DNA of 61,569 nucleotides, counting the filler, from Collodictyon triciliatum (Eukaryota): the NCBI GenBank assembly GCA_043381765.1. It is 5 parts of 5 records of this genome, joined end to end, with 100 filler letters (N's around TTAATTAATTAA, not from the genome) between each part and the next. Parts side by side here need not be neighbours in the genome. Positions count along the whole stretch, not along the records: positions 1 to 14,123 come from JBHJMP010001869.1; 4 more parts are not named here. One strand, 5' to 3'. Position numbers and translations under genes: made by a program. This document shows positions 5,601 to 42,479 of the stretch, one piece after another. Under the pieces are notes generated by a model that had not been told where the DNA came from, searched no databases, and was given only the letters and a program-made list of their open reading frames with translations. Within the stretch, counting starts at the first letter, position 1; every line of letters begins with the position of its first letter.

Positions 5601-7184
5601 AGTCAAGCAAACAGGATTTTTTATCGTTGTATCAGAGTAAGTTATCTAACCATATGGATTTTATACAGTTATGAGTGTCTGATTAATTATAAGTATAAAT
5701 ATTATATGGAAACAATAAAACGATTTGAATCAGTATATCTCGATAAATATACACATTATGAGAATGAATAATTAATAATAGCTTGATTAATTTTTATTGG
5801 AATTTCTTGGTATTTATAGTTTTTCATTTAGAGGAATATTTATTTAAATGGTCAACAAATAAAGAAATTTTTCAAAGGATAACACTGGTTCTGGTAAAGA
5901 ATATTTTATGATATTATATTTTACAATATTCATCTGATAATGAATCTATTCATACTTGCTCATAAATTAATTATCAGATATATCGTTTTATTTTTAATAT
6001 TATTGTCATACATATCTCATAATTAATCAATATGCCAATCCATTAGTTATTAAAATTGTGCGTCATTAACCACTTCTTACTTTTAAACATTACATCATCC
6101 GCTCATCCAGTTTTGGATTGCTTAGAAAACAAAGAGATAATGTATGATATATTTTTGATCGATTAATTAAATATTGGACTTTTTGTGCATTAAGAATTCG
6201 TTTAAAAGAGAATATGATTAAAAAACAATTTATCAATTATTTCTTTACTTTATCAATATTTATATACAACAAAATTTGAAAAATGTAACCAAATAATTGG
6301 CACATGTCTCTTTGATAAAATTTTATTCATAATTTAAATATACATTTTATTTCATAATATTCAGAAAATATAACTGTTTTATCATATTTAATCCTTTTAA
6401 AATCGTGCAAATTGTTTGAATAATAATAATTAATTCTATATTTTTAATTATAGGTATGATATTATATTTTGATTTTAAAGTGCATATAATTGAATGAAAA
6501 AAGTGCTTTTGTGGCATCTTCGGCTATTTTGGTTATCACAATTTATTGATTTATAACTAAGACAAACCAAACCTATTCTTTTCGAACTGAGACATATATT
6601 ATTCTATCATATAAACTTAAACTTGATTTTCCTTTGATTTATTCTCATGTCCCAATAATAATGAGGCTAATTTACATGAGTCCCATAATTAATATTGTTT
6701 TCCGTATGTCGTAAATTGATATATTTGTTTTTAATGCATGATTCAACTAATAATTGATTAGTGATTTTCCTACAAGTATCAAATCAAAATATAATTATAA
6801 TTCATCCAAAAATGACCTTGCTAAAAAATAACCGAAGTCTAATGAATTTTTATCAGTTTTATCCTAATTTGTGAGTTGATATCGATTTAATTTGAGACGA
6901 CTGTTTTGTATTTCTAATACATATGAATTAATAGATGAAGTCACTATATAATAAAATAAAAAAGTCATGGTTATCAATGGATATGAAAAAGAGTATTTTA
7001 TAGATTTATCTATGAGTATTATTGAAGTTATGTGTAGATAATCTATCCATGTATTTTTGAATCAATCAATGATAATTGAGTAAAATGATTCAATATTTAA
7101 GTTTAAGAAAATGTGTTCATTGGGTATTACACCATTTCATAAAATTTTGTATAAATGTTTAAACACTCATCACATTAGTTTAGA

Positions 7185-10100
7185 ATGAGATTAAACTCAA
7201 AGTCGTTTGCAGCTCTGTTTCTGTTGGGTGAGTTTTACATTTTAATTGTTTTAATTTTATTGACTTCAAATTACATAGAATTTTAATTGATATATTTATA
7301 GGATTGATACTCCATTGCCAATTGTGTCTTGTTGAAGGGCAAGATGATTCGATTCGAACGTTGACTGGCCATAATGGTGGTGTTCGTAGTGTTGCCTCTA
7401 CTCCTGAAAGCTCAAAAATTGTGTCTGGAAGCTATGATAGAACAATCAAAATTTGGAATCTTTCTGATGGAGCTTTGATTCGCACGTTGACTGATCATAC
7501 CGGTGGTGTTAACAGTGTTGCTGTTACTCCTGATGGCTCAAAAATTGTTTCTGGAAGTGATGATAGTAAAATCAAAATCTGGAATCTTTCTGATGGAGCT
7601 TTGATTCGCACATTGACTGGTCATATTGATAGGGTTAACATTGTTGCTGTTACTCCTGATGGCTCAAAAATTGTTTCTGGGAGTTATGATAGTACAATCA
7701 AAATTTGGAATCTTTCTGATGGAGCTTTGATTCGCACATTGACTGGTCATTCAAGTAATATTGACTGTGTTGTTGTAACTCCTGATGGCTCAAAAATTGT
7801 TTCTGGAAGCTGGGATAATACAATCAAAATCTGGAATCTTTCTGACGGAACTTTGATTCGCACATTGACTGGTCATGACTATGGTGTTAACAGTGTTGCT
7901 GTTACTCCTGATGGTTCAAAAATTGTTTCTGGAGGTGGTAGTTATTATGAAAATCCAATCAAAATTTGGAATCTTTCTGATGGAGCTTTGATTCGTACAT
8001 TGACTGGTCATACTGATTGGGTTCGTAGTGTTGCTGTTACTCCTGATGGCTCAAAAATTGTTTCTGGAGGTGAGGATAATACAATCAAAATCTGGAATCT
8101 ATCTGATGGGTCTTTGATTCGTACATTGACTGGTCATACTACTTGGGTTGTGAGTGTTGCTGTTACTCCTGATGGCTCAAAAATTGTTTCTGGTGGTGGT
8201 GATTGGTCAGTCAAAATCTGGGGACTTTGTGTCGCTGGTCAGTTCTATGATTCAGATTCAAAGTCTTGTCAACTGTGCCCTTCTGGAAGCTATAGTGCTG
8301 GAGGAAAGTCATCTTGTTCTTTATGTCCTGCCGGTACATACAATCCATCTACTGGACAAACAAGCTCTGCTTCCTGCATTTTTTGCCAAGAAGGAAAATA
8401 TAGCAACAAGACAGGTCAGGCATCATGCCTTAATTGCGAACCAGGAACATACACTAATATACGAGGACAGCCATTATGTTTTGACTGCCCATTAGGTTTC
8501 TACAATCAGGAATCAGGAAAAACATTTTGCACACCATGCGGCCCAGGAACGTACTCGAATTCGACAAAAGGGAAATCTTGTGAAAAATGTCCAGCCGGGA
8601 CTTTTAATCCAAATGTTGCATCTTCTAGTGTTAGCAGCTGCTTTCCATGTCCATTAGGAAGATTTTCATCAAAAACAGGTGAATCAACATGCGAACTTTG
8701 TCAATCTGGTTCTTACAATGCAAACCTTGGTCAGACTGGGTGCACCAATTGTACTGATGGAACTTACAATCCGAGATTTGGTTCATCAAGCAACGCGTCA
8801 TGCCTTGAGTGCCCTCAAGGAACGTATGGTAATGAACAAAGAGATGAATGTTTATCTTGTCCAGCTGGTACATTCAATAATAAAACTGGCTCATTTGATG
8901 AATCATCGTGCATTTCATGTGCAAATGGAAGTTACAGCTCAGAAAGAAGCGCATCATGCAGCTTATGTCTATCAGGATTCTATCAAAAAGAAGGCACCAT
9001 AAAAGACTCAAGCTCATGCTATGCTTGTTCAAAAGGCAAATTCAACTCAAACTCTGGCTCATATGGAAACGCATCTTGCGTTGAATGTCCACAAGGCACT
9101 TGGAACGATAGAGAGGGTCAAGCGTCATGCACATCATGTCCGCCTGGTACATTCAACAACAAAATTGGCTCATATAATCAATCATCCTGCATATCATGCG
9201 TGAACGGAAGCTACAGCTCAGAAAGAAGCTCGTCATGCAGCCTATGTTTATCAGGATTCTATCAAAAAGAAGGCACCATAAAAGACTCAAGCTCATGCTA
9301 TGCTTGTCCAAAAGGAACATTCAACTCAAACTCCAGCTCATATGGAGACTCATCATGTATCGAATGTCCGCAAGGTACTTGGAATGACAGAGATGGTCAA
9401 GCATCATGCACATCATGTCCAGCTGGGACATTCAACAATAAAACTGGCTCATTTGATGAATCATCATGTATCTCTTGCGCAAATGGAAGCTACAGCTCAG
9501 AAAGAAGCTCATCATGCAGTCTCTGCTTATCAGGATTCTATCAAAAAGAAGGCACCATAAAAGATTCAAAATCATGCCATTATTGTCCAAAAGGCACATT
9601 CAACTCAAACTCCGGCTCATATGGAAATAAATCATGTATCGAATGTCCACAAGGTACTTGGAATGATAGAGATGGTCAAGCATCATGCACATCCTGTCCA
9701 GCTGGTACATTCAACAATAAAACTGGCTCACACAATCAATCATCATGCATTGAATGTCCAGATGGAAGCTACAGCTCAGAAAAAAGTGCTTCATGCAGTT
9801 TGTGTTCCTCAGGATTTTATCAAAAAGAAGGAATCATAAAAGACTCACAATCACGCTACGCTTGTCCAAAAGGCACATTCAACTCAAACTCCGGCTCATA
9901 TGGAAACAAATCATGTACTGAATGTCCACAAGGTACTTGGAATGATAGAGATGGTCAAGCATCATGCACATCGTGTCCAGCTGGTGCATTCAACAATAAA
10001 ACTGGCTCATTCGACCAATCGTCATGCATTTCATGTCAAAGAGGAAGCTACAGCTCAATTGGAAGCGCATCATGCAGTCTATGTTCATCAGGATTCTATC

Positions 10101-12298
10101 AAAAAGAAGATATCATAAAAGACTCAAAATCATGCTATGCTTGTCCAAAAGGCACATTCAACTCAAATTCCGGCTCATATGGAAACAAATCATGCATTGA
10201 ATGTCCACAAGGCACTTGGAGTGATAATAATGGTCAGGCATCATGCACATCATGTCCAGCTGGAACATTTAATATTGAAACTGGTTCAATTAATCAATTA
10301 AGTTGTATTCTATGTTCCAAAGGTAGATTCAGCTCCGAAAGGAGTTTTTCTTGTAATTTCTGTCCAACTCGGTCAACCACAGAAAGAGAAGGTTCTGCAT
10401 CAATCGATGACTGCAAATGCCTAGATACATATGTGTCACATGACGGCATTTGCACATGTCCTCCAGGAAAATTCGAGGATGAAAATAAATGCGTTCCTTG
10501 TCGGATTGGTTCTTTTAAAAATACAAATGATACTAATTTTTGTTTTTCGTGTGGTGATAAATCCACAACAAAAAATAATGGTTCGCAGACTTCGACAGAT
10601 TGCGAATGTAAAACAGGATTCGATTTTATTAAATCTACTTCGACCTGCGAATGCAAACCTGGATGGTACGAAAAGCTAGAGGAATGTTTCAAGTGTTCTC
10701 CTGGAACATACAATGAAAATTACGGTCAAACACTGTGTAAAGAATGTCCAATTAATTCATTTACCAATATGACTGGCTCAATATCTATTTCAGAGTGCAA
10801 GTGCCTTCCATCAACATATCTTGACTCAAATATCAAGCAGTGTAAGTCTTGTCCAATAGGATTTATATGCGACGGAAGCAGTAGTCTTAATGTTGCACCT
10901 GGTTATTGGAAAGCGCCGACATCAAATGGAGAATATATTGCTTATAAGTGCCTGAATCAAGATGCATGTAATGGAGGAAACAATACCTGTGCCGATGGAT
11001 ATACTGGAGCTTTATGCAGCGTCTGCGAACCGGGATACGGGAAAACAGGAGATTTCTGCACAATTTGCCCATCAAGAGAAATCAATGGATGCCTTGTTTT
11101 TTTTAGCATTATCATTCCTATTTCCTTTGTCTTTTTTATGATTGAACAATCTAAGCAAACGAAGACTGGAAATATTCAAATTCTGAAATCTCTCTCCACA
11201 CACTACCAAGTTTTATCATATTTGGCAAACTTCGATGTAAACTGGAGCTCTACTTTAATCTCAGCTATGAAGATTCCAGCTCTGTTCTCATTTTCTCTTT
11301 CTATCGATAGCTACCCAATAGAATGTCAATTTGATATATCGATCTATGAAAAAATAGTATATTCGATTTTAACTCCAATTATATTGACAATTATCGTAAT
11401 TTTTATTGTTTTAATGAAGATTTCATGGCAGTGGTACAAGGAGGAAATTTCGAAGCAAGATATTACCATGAGAAGTATTAAGCATGAAATTACATACTCT
11501 ATGCTGGTTATGCTTTTCTTTGTTCATCCTTCAATTACATCTACCATCTCTGTAATATTTCCTTGTGAAAAACTTGGAGAAAATAGCTACCTTAAAGTAG
11601 ATATGTCAATTATTTGCGATGATTCAACATACTTATCATGGAGAAATATATCCCTGTCTTTTTTGGTCTTCTACTGTATCGGAGGTCCTACATTGATTTT
11701 GATAAGAATAATTCAAAAGAGAAGTTCTTTAAACAACCCAACTTCGAACACTTATGCTCTTTTAAGATTCTTGGTCGATGGATACACTGAAAAATGTCAA
11801 TACTGGGAAGTTATCATGATGATGCAAAAGCTGATAATTGTGATGATAAGCGCATTCTTTCCTGCGTCATTGCAAATCTACTTTGGTTTGTGGCTCCTAT
11901 TTCTAATGATAGCCTCGACGATTTATTTTCAACCTTATATATCAAATGTACTGAGGAAGTCGCAATTACAATCACTTTTGGTCCTCTATTTTACCTTGAT
12001 GCTTAGTTTACTTTTCCGATATAACAATTTGAATCAAAAAACCGAAGTTGTGTTAATGCTTTTGGTTGTCATTCTGAACGGAGGGATAGGAGTTGTTTTC
12101 CTATCAAAGGCAGGCCCTGTTGTTTTGAGATTAGCCCTCACCAAATTTTTATATTCGTTTGATTTCATATGGGAACTTACTGGTGCGAAATATGTATATT
12201 TGCAAATCATAAGAAAAATCACGGGAGAAAAAAAAAATGGAATCGTCGAAATGCATAGTATACCAAATACATCAGCTGTTGGTGTGTGCTCCATTTGA
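7185..12298 (+). CDS. Signal peptide + 7 WD40 repeats + long Cys-rich (GCC2/GCC3, ephrin-receptor-like) stalk + ~9-TM C-terminal domain; putative cell-surface receptor, ~1680 aa
   Basis: Exon 1 7185-7227 (MRLNSKSFAALFLLG), GT-AG intron 7228-7301, exon 2 7302-12298 in frame (ORF track 7304..12298). GH...W WD40 repeats; CPxGTY/F-type repeats; hydrophobic C-terminus with GYxxxxxYWE and FQPY motifs. Confidence 0.9.
7355..8222 (+). repeat. Seven near-identical 126-bp WD40-coding tandem repeats (fifth unit 135 bp)
   Basis: Unit starts at 7355, 7481, 7607, 7733, 7859, 7994, 8120; near-invariant core ACTCCTGATGGCTCAAAAATTGTTTCTGG. Confidence 0.95.
8858..10260 (+). repeat. Five 279-bp (93-aa) higher-order Cys-rich coding repeats
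   Basis: TGTCC(A/G)(G/C)CTGG recurs at 279-bp spacing: 8858, 9137, 9416, 9695, 9974, 10253. Confidence 0.9.
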
Positions 12299-13364: not shown

Positions 13365-13694
13365 GAGGCCCTGCAGCCCAGAGAACTGAAACCTTTCCTG
13401 GCCTGTCTGTATTATGCAAAAGTCAGTCAGACATGTGATGGGCACAAACCGGAACCCGTCGAAATCGTCTCCAAATAGGTTTTATTCATAGAGACCAGCA
13501 CAGTACTTTGACAAAACGCAGGAGGCAAGGGGTTCTCTGAACAGGGGGAAAGAAGCAAAACTGAACCTGCGGATATAAGGAAGTGGATAGGCGCTCGGAA
13601 AGAAACTCGCTCCTTCTTCTTTTTTTTTTGATCGAGTTGTTATTTCTGCACCTAACCTTGTATAAAAAATCGCACAGAACCCAAACTTGGAGCC

Positions 13695-13943
13695 ATGGCC
13701 GACCAAGTTGCGCAAAGCCTTGAAGCTGTCTCCCTTTCCACCGACTCCAACCTCACCCCTGAGCAAAAGCACACTTTCATCACGAGGAACCTTGCAGAGG
13801 TCATTGGCGAGGAAAAGATGAAGGAAGTCCTTGCCCAGCGCGATCTGCGCATCTACTGGGGAACCGCGCCCACAGGGAAGCCCCACATTGCCTACTTTGT
13901 GCCCATGTCCAAGATTGCCGACTTTTTGAGAGCTGGTTCACAG
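13695..13943 (+). CDS. YARS1: Cytosolic tyrosyl-tRNA synthetase, exon 1 only (rest lost at contig end)
   Basis: [10 protein letters not shown]...[31 protein letters not shown] is the eukaryotic TyrRS N-terminus with its HIGH-like motif; donor GT at 13944. Confidence 0.95.
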
Positions 13944-13996
13944 GTTCTCTATGACGGAAAAAGAAGCAGCCTCCTTGACCTCGAAACCAACAGCAT

Positions 13997-14123
13997 CCTT
14001 TCCTTTCTTTTCCTTTCCTTTCTTTTCCTTTCTTTTCCTTTCTTTTCCTTTCTTTTCCTTTCTTTTCCTTTCTTTTCTTTTCTTTTCTTTTCTTTTCTTT
14101 TCTTTTCTTTTCTTTTCTTTTTT
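13997..14123. repeat. Intronic pyrimidine microsatellite at contig end
   Basis: (TTTCC/TTTTC)n read directly. Confidence 0.9.
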
Positions 14124-14223
14124 NNNNNNNNNNNNNNNNNNNNNNNNNNNNNNNNNNNNNNNNNNNNTTAATTAATTAANNNNNNNNNNNNNNNNNNNNN
14201 NNNNNNNNNNNNNNNNNNNNNNN
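14124..14223. other. Artificial contig spacer N44-TTAATTAATTAA-N44
   Basis: Exactly 100 bp; stops in all six frames; identical at four places. Confidence 0.97.
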
Positions 14224-40429: not shown

Positions 40430-42053
40430 TCATATTGATTTAAAATCCCTGATGAGCTCGTCGTCCATCAAATATGTAACCTGTTGGAATTCAACAATAA
40501 GTGGGTAATGAAATGGGTGACTAGTAAATTGGCGTTCAACGAGCTGTGTCTATTGATAGATTCTTTTGAGGGAGAAAAATGGAAACCTTATTCAAGGCAC
40601 TATTAAGTGATAGTAGCCATTCCATTTTTATAATGCAGTCAGGAATATGAGAAAGCTATGTGCAATGTGAACAATAGAAATTTCTGAAAGCTTTATCGAA
40701 TTCCAAGTGCACAGACACTCGCAGTGAATCTTCGTAGTGGGATATACAAATATGCGACTTTTTTTATCTGGTAATTAGTATAATAGTAAAAATAATAACA
40801 TAAAAAAAACAAGAAAATCAATAATTTTATTGTTATATAAATAAAAAAGACTCGATTATTGGCCAGGCATAGTTTTGTCAAGCCACGTAATGTCGAGAAG
40901 GAGCTCGGCAACGTAGATATCTAATTTGTTGAAGTTGAAAAATGTTTAATGTGGTTTACTGATGATGAATAGATAAATGGACTATTCCTACAGAATTGCC
41001 TGATATATCCACCGAACTACATTTTCTCCATAGGCCCAAGCGATTCGAAACATTCTCAATTTTCTCATATGCAGCGACCTCATCATAGTATTCGAGATTC
41101 ATGGCTGTCTTGAAATCATTCCTAATAAGAAGATTTCGGACCGCCCTGAAAGTTTGATGCACGTGGATAGAGCTGTTTTCTTCGGTGGGACTCATAAGAA
41201 TTTCGCGCAAGTTATTCAATAACGTGATTGCCTGTGGTAAAACGGAAACCTAATTGGAAAGTTGGTTAAAAGAATAAACCGAAAAAACTGTTTAAAGTTT
41301 ATCACATGCTATGTGCTGATAAGCTTATGATCTGAAAATAAAAAATGAAAATCGTCAAATTGAAAAATATAGGAGGATTCAGTAAAGCATCACAAAAATT
41401 GAATGTCAATATATTACACAAAACCAGAATATCTCGTAGAGTCAAATGCTTACAGGGTTGCATACAATATCGAGTGTGCTCAGCCGTTTCAATGATGATA
41501 TTGAATTGGAAAGCGAAGATAAATCATTTTCTCGAGCATTTAAGAGGCTCAACTTTTTTAATGCAGAGATTCTGTCGGGCAAACATGAAACTCTGTTCTT
41601 GTAGAGATACAATTCAGTGAGCCTTGTAAGAGCTCCTATTTCATCGGGCAAAGAAAGTATACAATTACCAGATACACCCAGATATTCAAGATTCGATAAC
41701 CGCGATATTTCGCCTGGTATCTGTGATATCCTGTTGTAAGTAACATCAAGAAGCGTGAGGCTTGTAACTCTAAAGACCCCAGAATCCATGGCAGTTAGTC
41801 TATTGTAATGAGCGAATAGCCTTTTCAGTCCAGAGAGCAGAGATAGTTCGTTCGGCAACTGCGAGAGGCGGTTTCGATATAGTCCAAGAACAACCAGACG
41901 GCCCAGGTCAAAGACACCGGGCGGCAAAGAAGTGAGGCTTTTGCTTCCTGCATCCAGCAAAGTGCACCGTTCGATGGGCCGAAGAAAGCCGTTGGGTCTG
42001 TATGCGATTTGGAGAGCCTTCAAGTGTTGTAGACGCGCGGCACGATCGGACAT
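40430..42053 (-). CDS. Leucine-rich-repeat protein, ~5 exons, with a non-LRR island; 3' end tentative
   Basis: Exon 1 has ~8 LRRs; later exons VSVLPQAITLLNNLREI..., ISTLPSSFSTLRGLTKLCLANNR, LSHIPDCIIKMEWLLSLNSALNK. Confidence 0.82.
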
Positions 42054-42479
42054 GACAGACGGTGTCAGACGCACTTGTCTGTCTTTTGCTTTGCTTTAGC
42101 GTCTATTGTTCTTTGGGTTCAATAAGGCGCAGAGAGATGGACGAGTTATAAGGATGAACCAGAAAGTGTCGGCGGTTGCGTGTGACTGGATAACACAAGA
42201 TGGAGTTCTAACGTCAATCGTGTACATATTTAACGGAAGGATGGGTCGTACTATGCATGTATATGTTCGCAACGGTGATGGACATGTTTGATAAGACTTT
42301 ATGAATTATAGATGAGATTATAGACTTGCAATATATCAGAATGAAATTAATCACATAAATTCCACATTCAATCAGAACATTCTATCCGATCAAAAGAACG
42401 ATCTGCTCTGGCGAAAAATCAGCTCGCACAATGCAAAGATTCGCAACCATCAACAAAACAATCTGAGCAAGAGAAAGGA

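Follow-up and report, generated by a model that had tools for sequence, protein, structure and literature searches.

A large family of putative contact receptors with diversified WD40 propeller heads in the flagellate Collodictyon triciliatum

In the HNWD family of NOD-like receptors (NLRs) of Podospora anserina, the WD40 repeats are >80% identical within a gene (PMC12222747), and in one member, HET-E, four codons under selection (7, 9, 25, and 27) lie in the d-a loop and the b-c turn on the top face of the propeller and flank the conserved codons 8 and 26 (PMC1805685). Cysteine repeat modular proteins (CRMPs) have nine predicted transmembrane (TM) helices, are proposed contact sensors for exocytosis, and are present at the cell surface only briefly (PMC9815656, PMC9670195). 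Pkd2 also has nine predicted helices (bioRxiv 10.1101/2022.08.11.503631) and is calcium-permeable under membrane stretch (PMC9727806). In the plant receptor kinases CRINKLY4/ACR4, a cysteine-rich domain comes after an extracellular seven-blade propeller that the authors call WD40 (bioRxiv 10.1101/2020.08.10.245050). In this work, we analyzed a 61,569-nucleotide stretch of the Collodictyon triciliatum genome (GCA_043381765.1; hereafter the window) and, in particular, one gene in its first part whose predicted product joins a WD40 propeller to a cysteine-rich stalk and a multipass membrane module.

Our interpretation, which we hold with even confidence for and against, is that this gene is a member of a large family of cell-surface contact receptors in a phagotrophic flagellate. 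An earlier note on this DNA had observed near-identical WD40 units with variable top-face positions and had read them as a diversified surface receptor. The observation was confirmed and the interpretation was supported; surface location, binding, ligand class, and signaling are the parts that we infer. The gene lies on a contig that occupies window positions 1 to about 14,120, the other contigs of the window being joined by runs of N. One open frame of 1688 codons holds everything from the WD40 part through the membrane module, and the domains follow in the order signal peptide, WD40 head of seven blades, cysteine-rich stalk of about 20 repeats, DUF7630, and membrane module with probably nine helices. 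The features are as follows.

7185-12298, + strand: focal gene (1679 aa, one intron) on contig JBHJMP010001869.1, first part of the window
7185..7227, + strand: exon 1, 43 nt, with the start codon and the first half of the signal peptide; shared by 39/65 paralogues
7228..7301, + strand: phase-1 intron, 74 nt, GT..AG, GC 0.16; intron length varies among paralogues with the exon frame kept
7302..7339, + strand: rest of the predicted signal peptide, its second half; hydropathy maximum 2.19 (aa 6-27)
7352..8221, + strand: seven-blade WD40 propeller, aa 32-321 (tandem array, Pfam, AlphaFold, Foldseek)
7352, 7478, 7604, 7730, 7856, 7991, and 8117, + strand: starts of the WD40 units
8228..10945, + strand: Cys-rich stalk of about 20 Ephrin_rec_like (GCC2/GCC3-type) repeats (PF07699, 20 stretches, E 3.6e-129)
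8854..10298, + strand: tandem stalk repeat of 279 bp (93 aa), 5.2 copies, 86% matches (tandem array)
10946..11068, + strand: DUF7630 Cys-rich juxtamembrane module (PF24633, E 7.3e-6; 26.5 bits, narrowly missing the cut-off of 27)
11075..12109, + strand: multipass membrane module (AlphaFold, per-helix hydropathy, loop pattern)
12110..12298, + strand: C-terminal tail of about 62 aa, with the stop codon at 12296-12298; cytosolic if there are nine helices

The WD40 head is a tandem array (period 126, 6.8 copies, 83% matches) with seven Pfam WD40 stretches, and the earlier note had quoted the seven units and all fourteen patch strings correctly. Its description of the units as almost identical at the DNA level was right in that identity is high and a bit strong in degree: the mean pairwise nucleotide identity is 82% (74-89%) over codons 1-35 and 92% (83-98%) over the 27 framework codons. 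Amino acid change is concentrated in two patches, as claimed, with 157 of the 193 pairwise differences (81%) falling in these 11 of 35 sites. Unit 2 has DH in place of GH, unit 5 carries a 3-codon insertion, and the NLS sequon occurs, at unit positions 36-38, in six units (aa 67, 109, 151, 193, 238, and 280), the number given before. By itself, such internal identity is not unusual for a repetitive WD40 protein: the 72% amino acid identity of the focal head is equalled or exceeded by 24 of 117 outside WD40 matches.

The AlphaFold model of the propeller has a mean predicted local distance difference test score (pLDDT) of 90.7 and a predicted template modeling score (pTM) of 0.88, and its best Foldseek matches are seven-blade WD40 propellers (TMq 0.88, root mean square deviation 1.0). 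An ESM Atlas search returned generic WD40 clusters only (0.84), with recognition below the threshold. The focal propeller has 2 Cys in 295 aa (aa 31-325) and canonical GH-WD blades. When the first Ile of a unit is numbered 1 (strands a 11-16, b 22-27, c 32-36, and d 42-4 in the AlphaFold strand list), the highest-entropy positions across 154 units are 10, 12, 28, and 30 (3.2-3.7 bits); positions 8 and 9 vary too, and positions 11 and 29, each between two variable positions, are conserved. In the model, these four positions fall where the d-a loop passes into strand a and within the b-c loop, such that the variable sites do not scatter over the structure and form four entropy peaks on one propeller face. 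These hot sites are rich in Tyr, Asn, Arg, Ser, Gly, and Trp.

For the study of selection, WD40 units were extracted by hidden Markov model alignment (453, then 821), and the four sites were set from the HET-E spacing after the unit listing had been seen. The best control is the comparison of inner and outermost propellers within 21-blade proteins. Among seven 21-blade paralogues, the proportion of non-synonymous differences (pN) between same blades at the four sites reaches 0.63 for the outermost propeller, compared with 0.14 and 0.10 for the inner two. Likewise, the nearest neighbor is the same blade of another gene for 104/104 inner units and for 12.9 of 47 outer units (eight 21-blade genes). 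Within 22 seven-blade genes selected by their WD40 part, the four sites have pN 0.63 and a synonymous proportion (pS) of 0.37, the framework has pN 0.08 and pS 0.24, and conserved codons inside the patches have pS 0.19. The corresponding values for the focal gene are pN 0.59 and pS 0.41 at the four sites and pN 0.05 and pS 0.18 in the framework, with changes at 0/36 synonymous sites of the conserved patch codons. Over all seven-unit genes, with one 5'-cut gene left out, pN exceeds pS at the hot sites in 28/35. The four-site combinations number 149 in the 154 units of the 22 genes, and the two-patch combinations 284 in 288 units. Local hypermutation of the patches was considered and rejected, given that synonymous change at conserved patch codons is not raised (above the framework in 15/35 genes). 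As a separate observation, the inner two propellers of the 21-blade subfamily (L056, L065, L039, L060, L053, L045, L050, and L098) are kept blade by blade, top faces included, which suggests a fixed ligand or a structural role below the variable propeller.

The N-glycan sequons bear on the sidedness of the propeller. A sequon at unit positions 36-38 is found in 86% of 256 non-terminal high-identity units and in 56% of all 745 units, compared with 4.2% of 1503 units from outside WD40 matches. This site follows strand c, which we take, by the usual WD40 convention, to be the opposite (bottom) face to the variable patches. In the top-face patches, no sequon was seen vs 8.8 expected in 288 units (permutation p 0.0004), and a larger set of 732 units has 8 vs 24.4 expected (p 0.0002). 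With the bottom-face sequon fixed and top-face sequons depleted, the propeller would pass through the endoplasmic reticulum (ER) and keep its top face clear, a pattern that supports an exoplasmic, ligand-binding propeller. The earlier placement of the propeller outside the cell thus stands as far as the exoplasmic side is concerned (signal peptide, sequons), and these features do not separate the cell surface from the lumen of an organelle.

Accordingly, the same receptor might face the lumen of a food vacuole or another organelle, where it would sample ingested microbes and set their fate (digest or expel). Signal peptide, sequons, and disulfides fix the exoplasmic side only, a phagotroph generally meets most foreign surfaces in vacuoles, and CRMPs are at the surface only briefly. 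We nonetheless consider this location unlikely, since the very long stalks (the longest paralogue frames have 3526 aa) and the one to four stacked propellers, of which only the outermost is variable, fit a reach beyond the cell coat. The glycan pattern also bears on the suggestion that the protein is a variable coat or decoy, whose top face would change under attack by viruses, parasites, or predators that attach to it. Diversifying selection would be expected equally of a surface that binds and of one that is bound, and the many frame-broken copies fit rapid turnover. However, an evasion coat gains from glycans on its exposed face, where the 0 sequons vs 8.8 expected run the other way; the hot positions favor aromatic residues and Arg, a composition like that of binding sites; and the nine-helix module is under purifying selection (median pN 0.27, pS 0.75). 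A coat is therefore rather improbable in our view, and a contact receptor at the cell surface remains our preferred interpretation.

Production of the WD40 part depends on the 7228-7301 splice, because the ATG at 7185 read unspliced runs into a stop at codon 34 and the first Met of the long frame is aa 1171. Among the 65 paralogues having enough upstream DNA, 39 show a 43-nt exon 1 with a GT donor and an in-frame acceptor, compared with 1-7 of 65 for each of ten other exon-1 lengths tried. The first introns of the paralogues are about 56-181 nt long and occur in all three phases. Most of the 26 paralogues without the 43-nt exon have a hydrophobic stretch ahead of the repeats, and some have another exon-1 length. 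This comparative evidence strongly supports the spliced signal peptide of the earlier note, and a splice from 7227 to 7302 appears well supported; cleavage after aa 27 is probable, as judged by eye from the -3/-1 rule. The Cys-rich stalk and the multipass domain joined to it, also proposed earlier, are both real (PF07699, hydropathy, model); the stalk has 11% Cys and 21 sequons.

The genome assembly is fragmented (14,576 contigs), and matched contigs are fragments rather than a gene count. Searches of the genome gave at least 97 matches to the membrane-module DNA on at least 92 contigs (97 of 205 candidates scored), matches to the WD40 DNA on at least 40 contigs (40 of 201 candidates scored), and matches to the first-exon region 7170-7360 on at least 40 contigs (40 scored of 45 candidates), with a union of at least 135 contigs; the gene is thus not single-copy. 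The loci read comprise 40 WD40-selected contigs and 40 more from the 92 tail-selected contigs. Among the former, 32/40 have the stalk or membrane module next to the array, 4 have a different, extracellular-type linker rich in Gln, Ser, and Lys, and 4 end within the array, and no NACHT-type frame was found ahead of any WD40 array on these 40 contigs. Among the latter, 6/40 lack a 5' end and WD40 heads are present on 33/34 of the rest. In total, at least 65 other contigs show the WD40-stalk fusion, and its junction is conserved. Blade counts in 76 frames are 7 in 36, 14 in 6, 21 in 10, and 28 in one. Among 44 membrane modules compared, the closest pair is 96% identical and the best match of the focal gene 76%, so the family members are mostly paralogues. 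The search for paralogues sharing stalk and TM domain, which had been recommended, found such cases as L098 and L099, with tails 96% identical and 21 vs 7 blades.

Some members depart from this layout. L107 (C2773) is the sole tail-selected locus with upstream DNA that lacks a WD40 head (frames of at least 120 aa), and L049, L051, L052, and L064 (C8348, C3847, C2934, and C5975) carry the same WD40 head on another kind of body, a linker of Gln/Ser/Lys/Arg dipeptide repeats; in L049, an FG-GAP-type propeller (PF14312) comes after the linker, and L051 shares the 43-nt exon 1. In a freshwater metagenome run (X1; 0.05 of words), 222 short contigs map to the gene, none spanning it whole, and these may not be independent; 47 are identical at ≥99%, 72 at 95-99%, 52 at 90-95%, and 51 under 90%. 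One of them (depth 11) has ten differing letters, all in the first patch of unit 4 (window 7751-7766), and another joins 7834 to 8224, a junction as in paralogues L041 and L047. These variant contigs imply that relatives of the family exist in that run. A metagenome scan with the TM alignment gave 376 pattern matches, with zero confirmed.

The repeats appear to evolve in concert. Among 23 high-identity seven-blade genes, the nearest neighbor lies within the same gene for 26.5 of 148 units (chance 6) and at the same blade elsewhere for 24.4 (chance 21.1). Identical 18-nt first patches occur in 18 between-gene and 26 within-gene pairs, of which 0 and 3, respectively, share the second patch, so the patches reassort or change fast. 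The repeat shuffling that the earlier note had in mind is thus seen in part: the framework is homogenized and the patches are freshly changed, and whole-repeat shuffling between genes is less evident.

Heads and tails seem to be exchanged as well. Identity to paralogue L046 is 80-90% from the DNA ahead of the focal gene through its head and into the first stalk repeats (82-90% in the head), whereas in the membrane module it falls to 66-72%, and L098/L099 are closer there (74-84%). To six genes of L046's tail clade, the pS of the WD framework is 0.18-0.28 and that of the TM part 0.73-0.78, and forcing the focal tail into this clade, which was drawn from an earlier tree, is rejected by the approximately unbiased test (p-AU 0.003). 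L050 and L053 likewise carry high-identity heads on the focal tail clade. The 279-bp stalk repeat is 85-90% identical among paralogues from both membrane-module clades and is likely the zone of exchange. From these comparisons, the focal head and tail appear to derive from different subfamilies, and a chimera is possible for any single gene. We consider it very improbable that the whole architecture is an assembly or amplification chimera of an intracellular WD40 array and an unrelated membrane protein. Such an artifact would fit the fragmented assembly and the different closest paralogues of head and tail, but the same fusion and junction recur on the ≥65 other contigs, a single open frame of 1688 codons runs through it, and the bottom-face sequons belong to the repeat itself. 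A chimera could explain the head/tail mosaic of the focal gene.

Regarding the membrane module, eight helices have hydropathy ≥1.5 and one is weak (0.36). A nine-helix topology would place a Cys pair and an NWS sequon outside and most basic loops inside, a modest trend, and the module probably has nine helices. Its profile matches 12,408 clusters at E up to 0.001, and the best named relatives are from Rigifila ramosa and Mantamonas plastica, which points to an affinity with CRuMs; one is from Clastostelium recurvatum. Among the 29 of 150 TM relatives scanned with Pfam, the heads include RCC1, FG-GAP, PQQ, and Kelch propellers, TIG, LRR, filamin, and DOMON. Our own WD40 profile, applied to all 153 module relatives, found a WD40 array in none of them (one weak single-blade match). 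Conversely, the stalk or membrane module is in none of the 117 outside WD40 matches. A homologue search with head plus stalk is weak evidence of absence because WD40 proteins crowd the list: the best 120 of 3927 matches (8000 scored) are 117 WD40-only and 3 stalk-only proteins. Two relatives, P0011 and P0020 (module profile E 1.5e-60 and 1.6e-53), pass the PF06011 cut-off over overlapping residues; they are the 2/29 relatives that do so, and 2/5 others match below the cut-off. The module may thus be tied to PF06011 (Flc/Pkd2) through its relatives. A Foldseek search with the TM model gave no match at E up to 0.001 (G protein-coupled receptor matches have E ≥0.13 and TMq <0.2), which is not proof of a new fold, and the best VIA match is a generic helix bundle (Z 9.2 over 114 residues; model pLDDT 68.8).

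Several findings qualify or weigh against a family of selected contact receptors. Codon likelihood analysis used 288 units without indels and with at least 85% framework identity, from 60/76 frames. The pooled omega at the four sites speaks for selection, with 1.56 when the all-site tree is used (likelihood-ratio test, LRT, 7.5) and 3.8 when the framework tree is used (LRT 56); these values are approximate, the likelihood grid being coarse and trees from 105-nt recombining units unreliable, and the framework omega of 0.11 is lowered by the choice of units for ≥85% framework identity. Position 12 is the only site significant on both trees, and position 10 is significant only on the framework tree. 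Positions 28 and 30 are significant on neither, and only against the global synonymous rate, because synonymous rates there are raised as much as the non-synonymous ones; recombination of patch 2 may therefore mimic selection at these two positions. The per-site dN/dS check suggested earlier thus gave a pooled value above 1 and a single site, position 12, that stands in both tests. Outside WD40 proteins are also most variable at the same positions (entropy 3.3-3.8 bits), so tolerance explains part of the pattern. In 7/35 genes, the excess of pN over pS at the hot sites is not seen, and many tail-selected paralogues carry old, diverged blades below HET-E-like identity. None of the focal gene's seven first patches has identical DNA elsewhere, such sharing being rare overall. 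Stops or frameshifts are present in 10/40 tail-selected loci (L099, L100, L101, L103, L104, L114, L121, L124, L127, and L128), which are pseudogenes or assembly errors. The membrane model has a moderate pLDDT of 68.8, the module has no Pfam match of its own (0 families; only DUF7630 at E up to 1), its profile has no sequence relative in PDB, and the C-terminal tail is short, with no signaling or enzyme domain found by Pfam.

Some of these points would suit an explanation without any arms race, in which a recently amplified WD40 unit of a general adhesive protein drifts at tolerant positions. The shared variability of outside WD40 proteins, the lack of individual significance at positions 28 and 30, and the inflation of tree-based tests by recombination all fit it. 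In contrast, pN exceeds pS at the hot sites in tree-free comparisons, the codons between the hot sites are conserved with synonymous change not raised (0/36 sites in the focal gene), and the inner propellers of the same proteins keep the hot positions conserved. Drift is accordingly quite unlikely in our estimation, and selection on a binding face remains the preferred explanation.

If the gene does encode a contact receptor, the following scheme may be proposed. The signal peptide would direct the N terminus into the ER, a step that is strongly supported by sequence features. The WD40 blades are predicted to fold as a seven-blade propeller with a glycosylated bottom face and a free top face, held tens of nanometers off the membrane by a stiff, disulfide-bonded stalk. 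On contact, the top face would bind surface molecules of other microbes, either prey or parasites, and seven differently dressed blades could give each gene its own specificity. By analogy with CRMPs and Pkd2, binding or a pull on the stalk might cause the nine-helix module to give a calcium-type signal, which might start capture, engulfment, or rejection; these are the weakest steps. Over evolutionary time, and in line with the sequence patterns described above, the repertoire would be renewed as in HET-E: gene conversion or unequal crossing-over would homogenize the framework of the blades, both inside a gene and across the family, selection would favor point changes at the four codons, the two patches would reassort, and heads would move between stalks. 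Collodictyon is described as catching prey with pseudopods, and its group as eating cryptomonads, green algae, and cyanobacteria.

The ligand might instead be a polymorphic tag of conspecifics, read in the way that HET-E reads HET-C, for self or kin recognition (cannibalism avoidance or mate choice). The four codons and the mode of evolution are indeed those of the het-d/het-e allorecognition genes, but about 90 loci far exceed the ten-member fungal family, and no partner gene was seen on the contig, which has no other long frame near the gene, although no search was aimed at partners. We regard recognition of self as improbable. Taken to its full extent, the proposal of contact receptors for other microbes may be extended to a repertoire of some hundred surface receptors, encoded in the germline and comparable to antibodies, in a free-living unicellular predator near the base of Amorphea, in which NLR-style WD40 propellers, placed outside the cell, selected, and exchanging repeats, are coupled to a CRMP/Pkd2-like calcium trigger and tell prey, parasites, and self apart; this extension is tentative and less likely than not. 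To our knowledge, the molecular basis on which phagotrophic protists recognize their catch is largely unknown; a literature search on this subject brought up, as its best match, work on lipid remodeling in prey. The family would also supply soluble binding domains of high regularity, each blade having four positions that can be tuned, and would give access to an unstudied nine-helix receptor module that is found very widely (12,408 clusters).

Other observations concern the genome and the remainder of the window. The open-frame listing contains no second long frame near the focal gene on its contig. At the end of this contig is a piece of a class Ib (Trp/Tyr) tRNA synthetase (window 13656-14171, + strand; PF00579), and a different contig has a leucine-rich-repeat frame (window 41442-42095, - strand; PF13855, E 1e-19). 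Conventional actin has one dominant locus in the genome, which agrees with a single organism and is no proof of it. HSP90 of this genome (L138, on another contig than the receptor) is 87% identical to that of Diphylleia rotans, with a 98% match ranking above it and the next at 81%; this one gene, along with the CRuMs affinity of the membrane module, suggests a collodictyonid, although its third-position GC differs widely from that of the receptor. GC content at third codon positions is 0.81-0.88 in HSP90 (L138), 0.29 in the receptor, and 0.36-0.43 in NACHT frames; recognition families thus seem to be placed in an AT-rich, gene-poor compartment. A genome search for NACHT gave 44 matches, 41 above the cut-off, mostly in frames of 1000-3400 aa (e.g., L142-L147). 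In the three NACHT proteins examined, the C-terminal part consists of WD40 repeats and stretches resembling pentapeptide repeats were recognized by eye; L147 has repetitive 45-aa WD40 units with variable top-face residues. Alongside the surface family, the genome may hold a large set of intracellular NLR-like proteins. A repeat pool shared with the NACHT proteins was unsupported in the 3/41 examined, whose units are diverged or 45 aa long (≤29 bits).

Among known systems, CRINKLY4 already combines an extracellular propeller with a Cys-rich domain, so the layout by itself has a precedent. Its blades are each disulfide-stapled and resemble BLIP-II/UVR8, and it is described as a conserved protein with a single TM segment and a kinase and without a diversified family, whereas the focal propeller has 2 Cys and is followed by a multipass module without a kinase. 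In a literature search covering titles and the starts of abstracts, a large family in which this module bears canonical WD40 heads under positive selection did not come up; among the 15 matches listed of 26 on these domains and CRuMs, from a collection in which subscription journals are mostly missing, none holds DUF7630, PF06011, or CRMP. Flc/Pkd2 proteins (PF06011) likewise have a signal peptide and an extracellular domain ahead of a multipass module, which has nine helices there and probably nine in the focal protein, but they have an Ig-like lipid-binding head, and the focal protein has neither such a head nor a direct PF06011 match. The CRMPs of Apicomplexa and Tetrahymena resemble the predicted layout of the focal protein in their exoplasmic N-terminal binding module, Ephrin-receptor-like repeats, and cytosolic C-terminal tail. 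CRMP genes are conserved, number two to four, and encode Kringle, lectin, or MAR heads, in contrast to the dozens of paralogues with selected WD40 heads here, and this likeness is one of architecture by published description. The same order of modules as in the focal protein (Ephrin_rec_like, DUF7630, multipass) is found in unnamed protist receptors of Rigifila ramosa, Mantamonas plastica, and Clastostelium recurvatum. The focal gene differs from them in having a WD40 array as its head, and it belongs to this unnamed, widespread protist receptor family with swappable heads, often beta-propellers.

For the WD40 head, the closest counterparts are the HNWD NLRs of P. anserina, which likewise have 42-aa units >80% identical within a gene. 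Focal units and HET-E both have two pairs of variable codons 18 codons apart with a conserved residue between, matched by spacing and strand position, and in both families the framework is homogenized by concerted evolution of the repeats. Unlike in HNWD, the focal propeller is N-terminal, follows a signal peptide, is predicted to be glycosylated, and sits on a stalk and multipass module; unlike the ten-member HNWD family, there are about 90 loci with blades in multiples of seven. No HET, NACHT, or death-effector domain is among the best 25 Pfam families listed for the focal frame or for its WD40 part, the stalk and TM parts gave none either, and only 31 aa precede the repeats. By these comparisons, the focal gene evolves like HET-E and is not an NLR. 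If true, the HET-E mode of generating recognition diversity works on the exoplasmic side of the membrane too.

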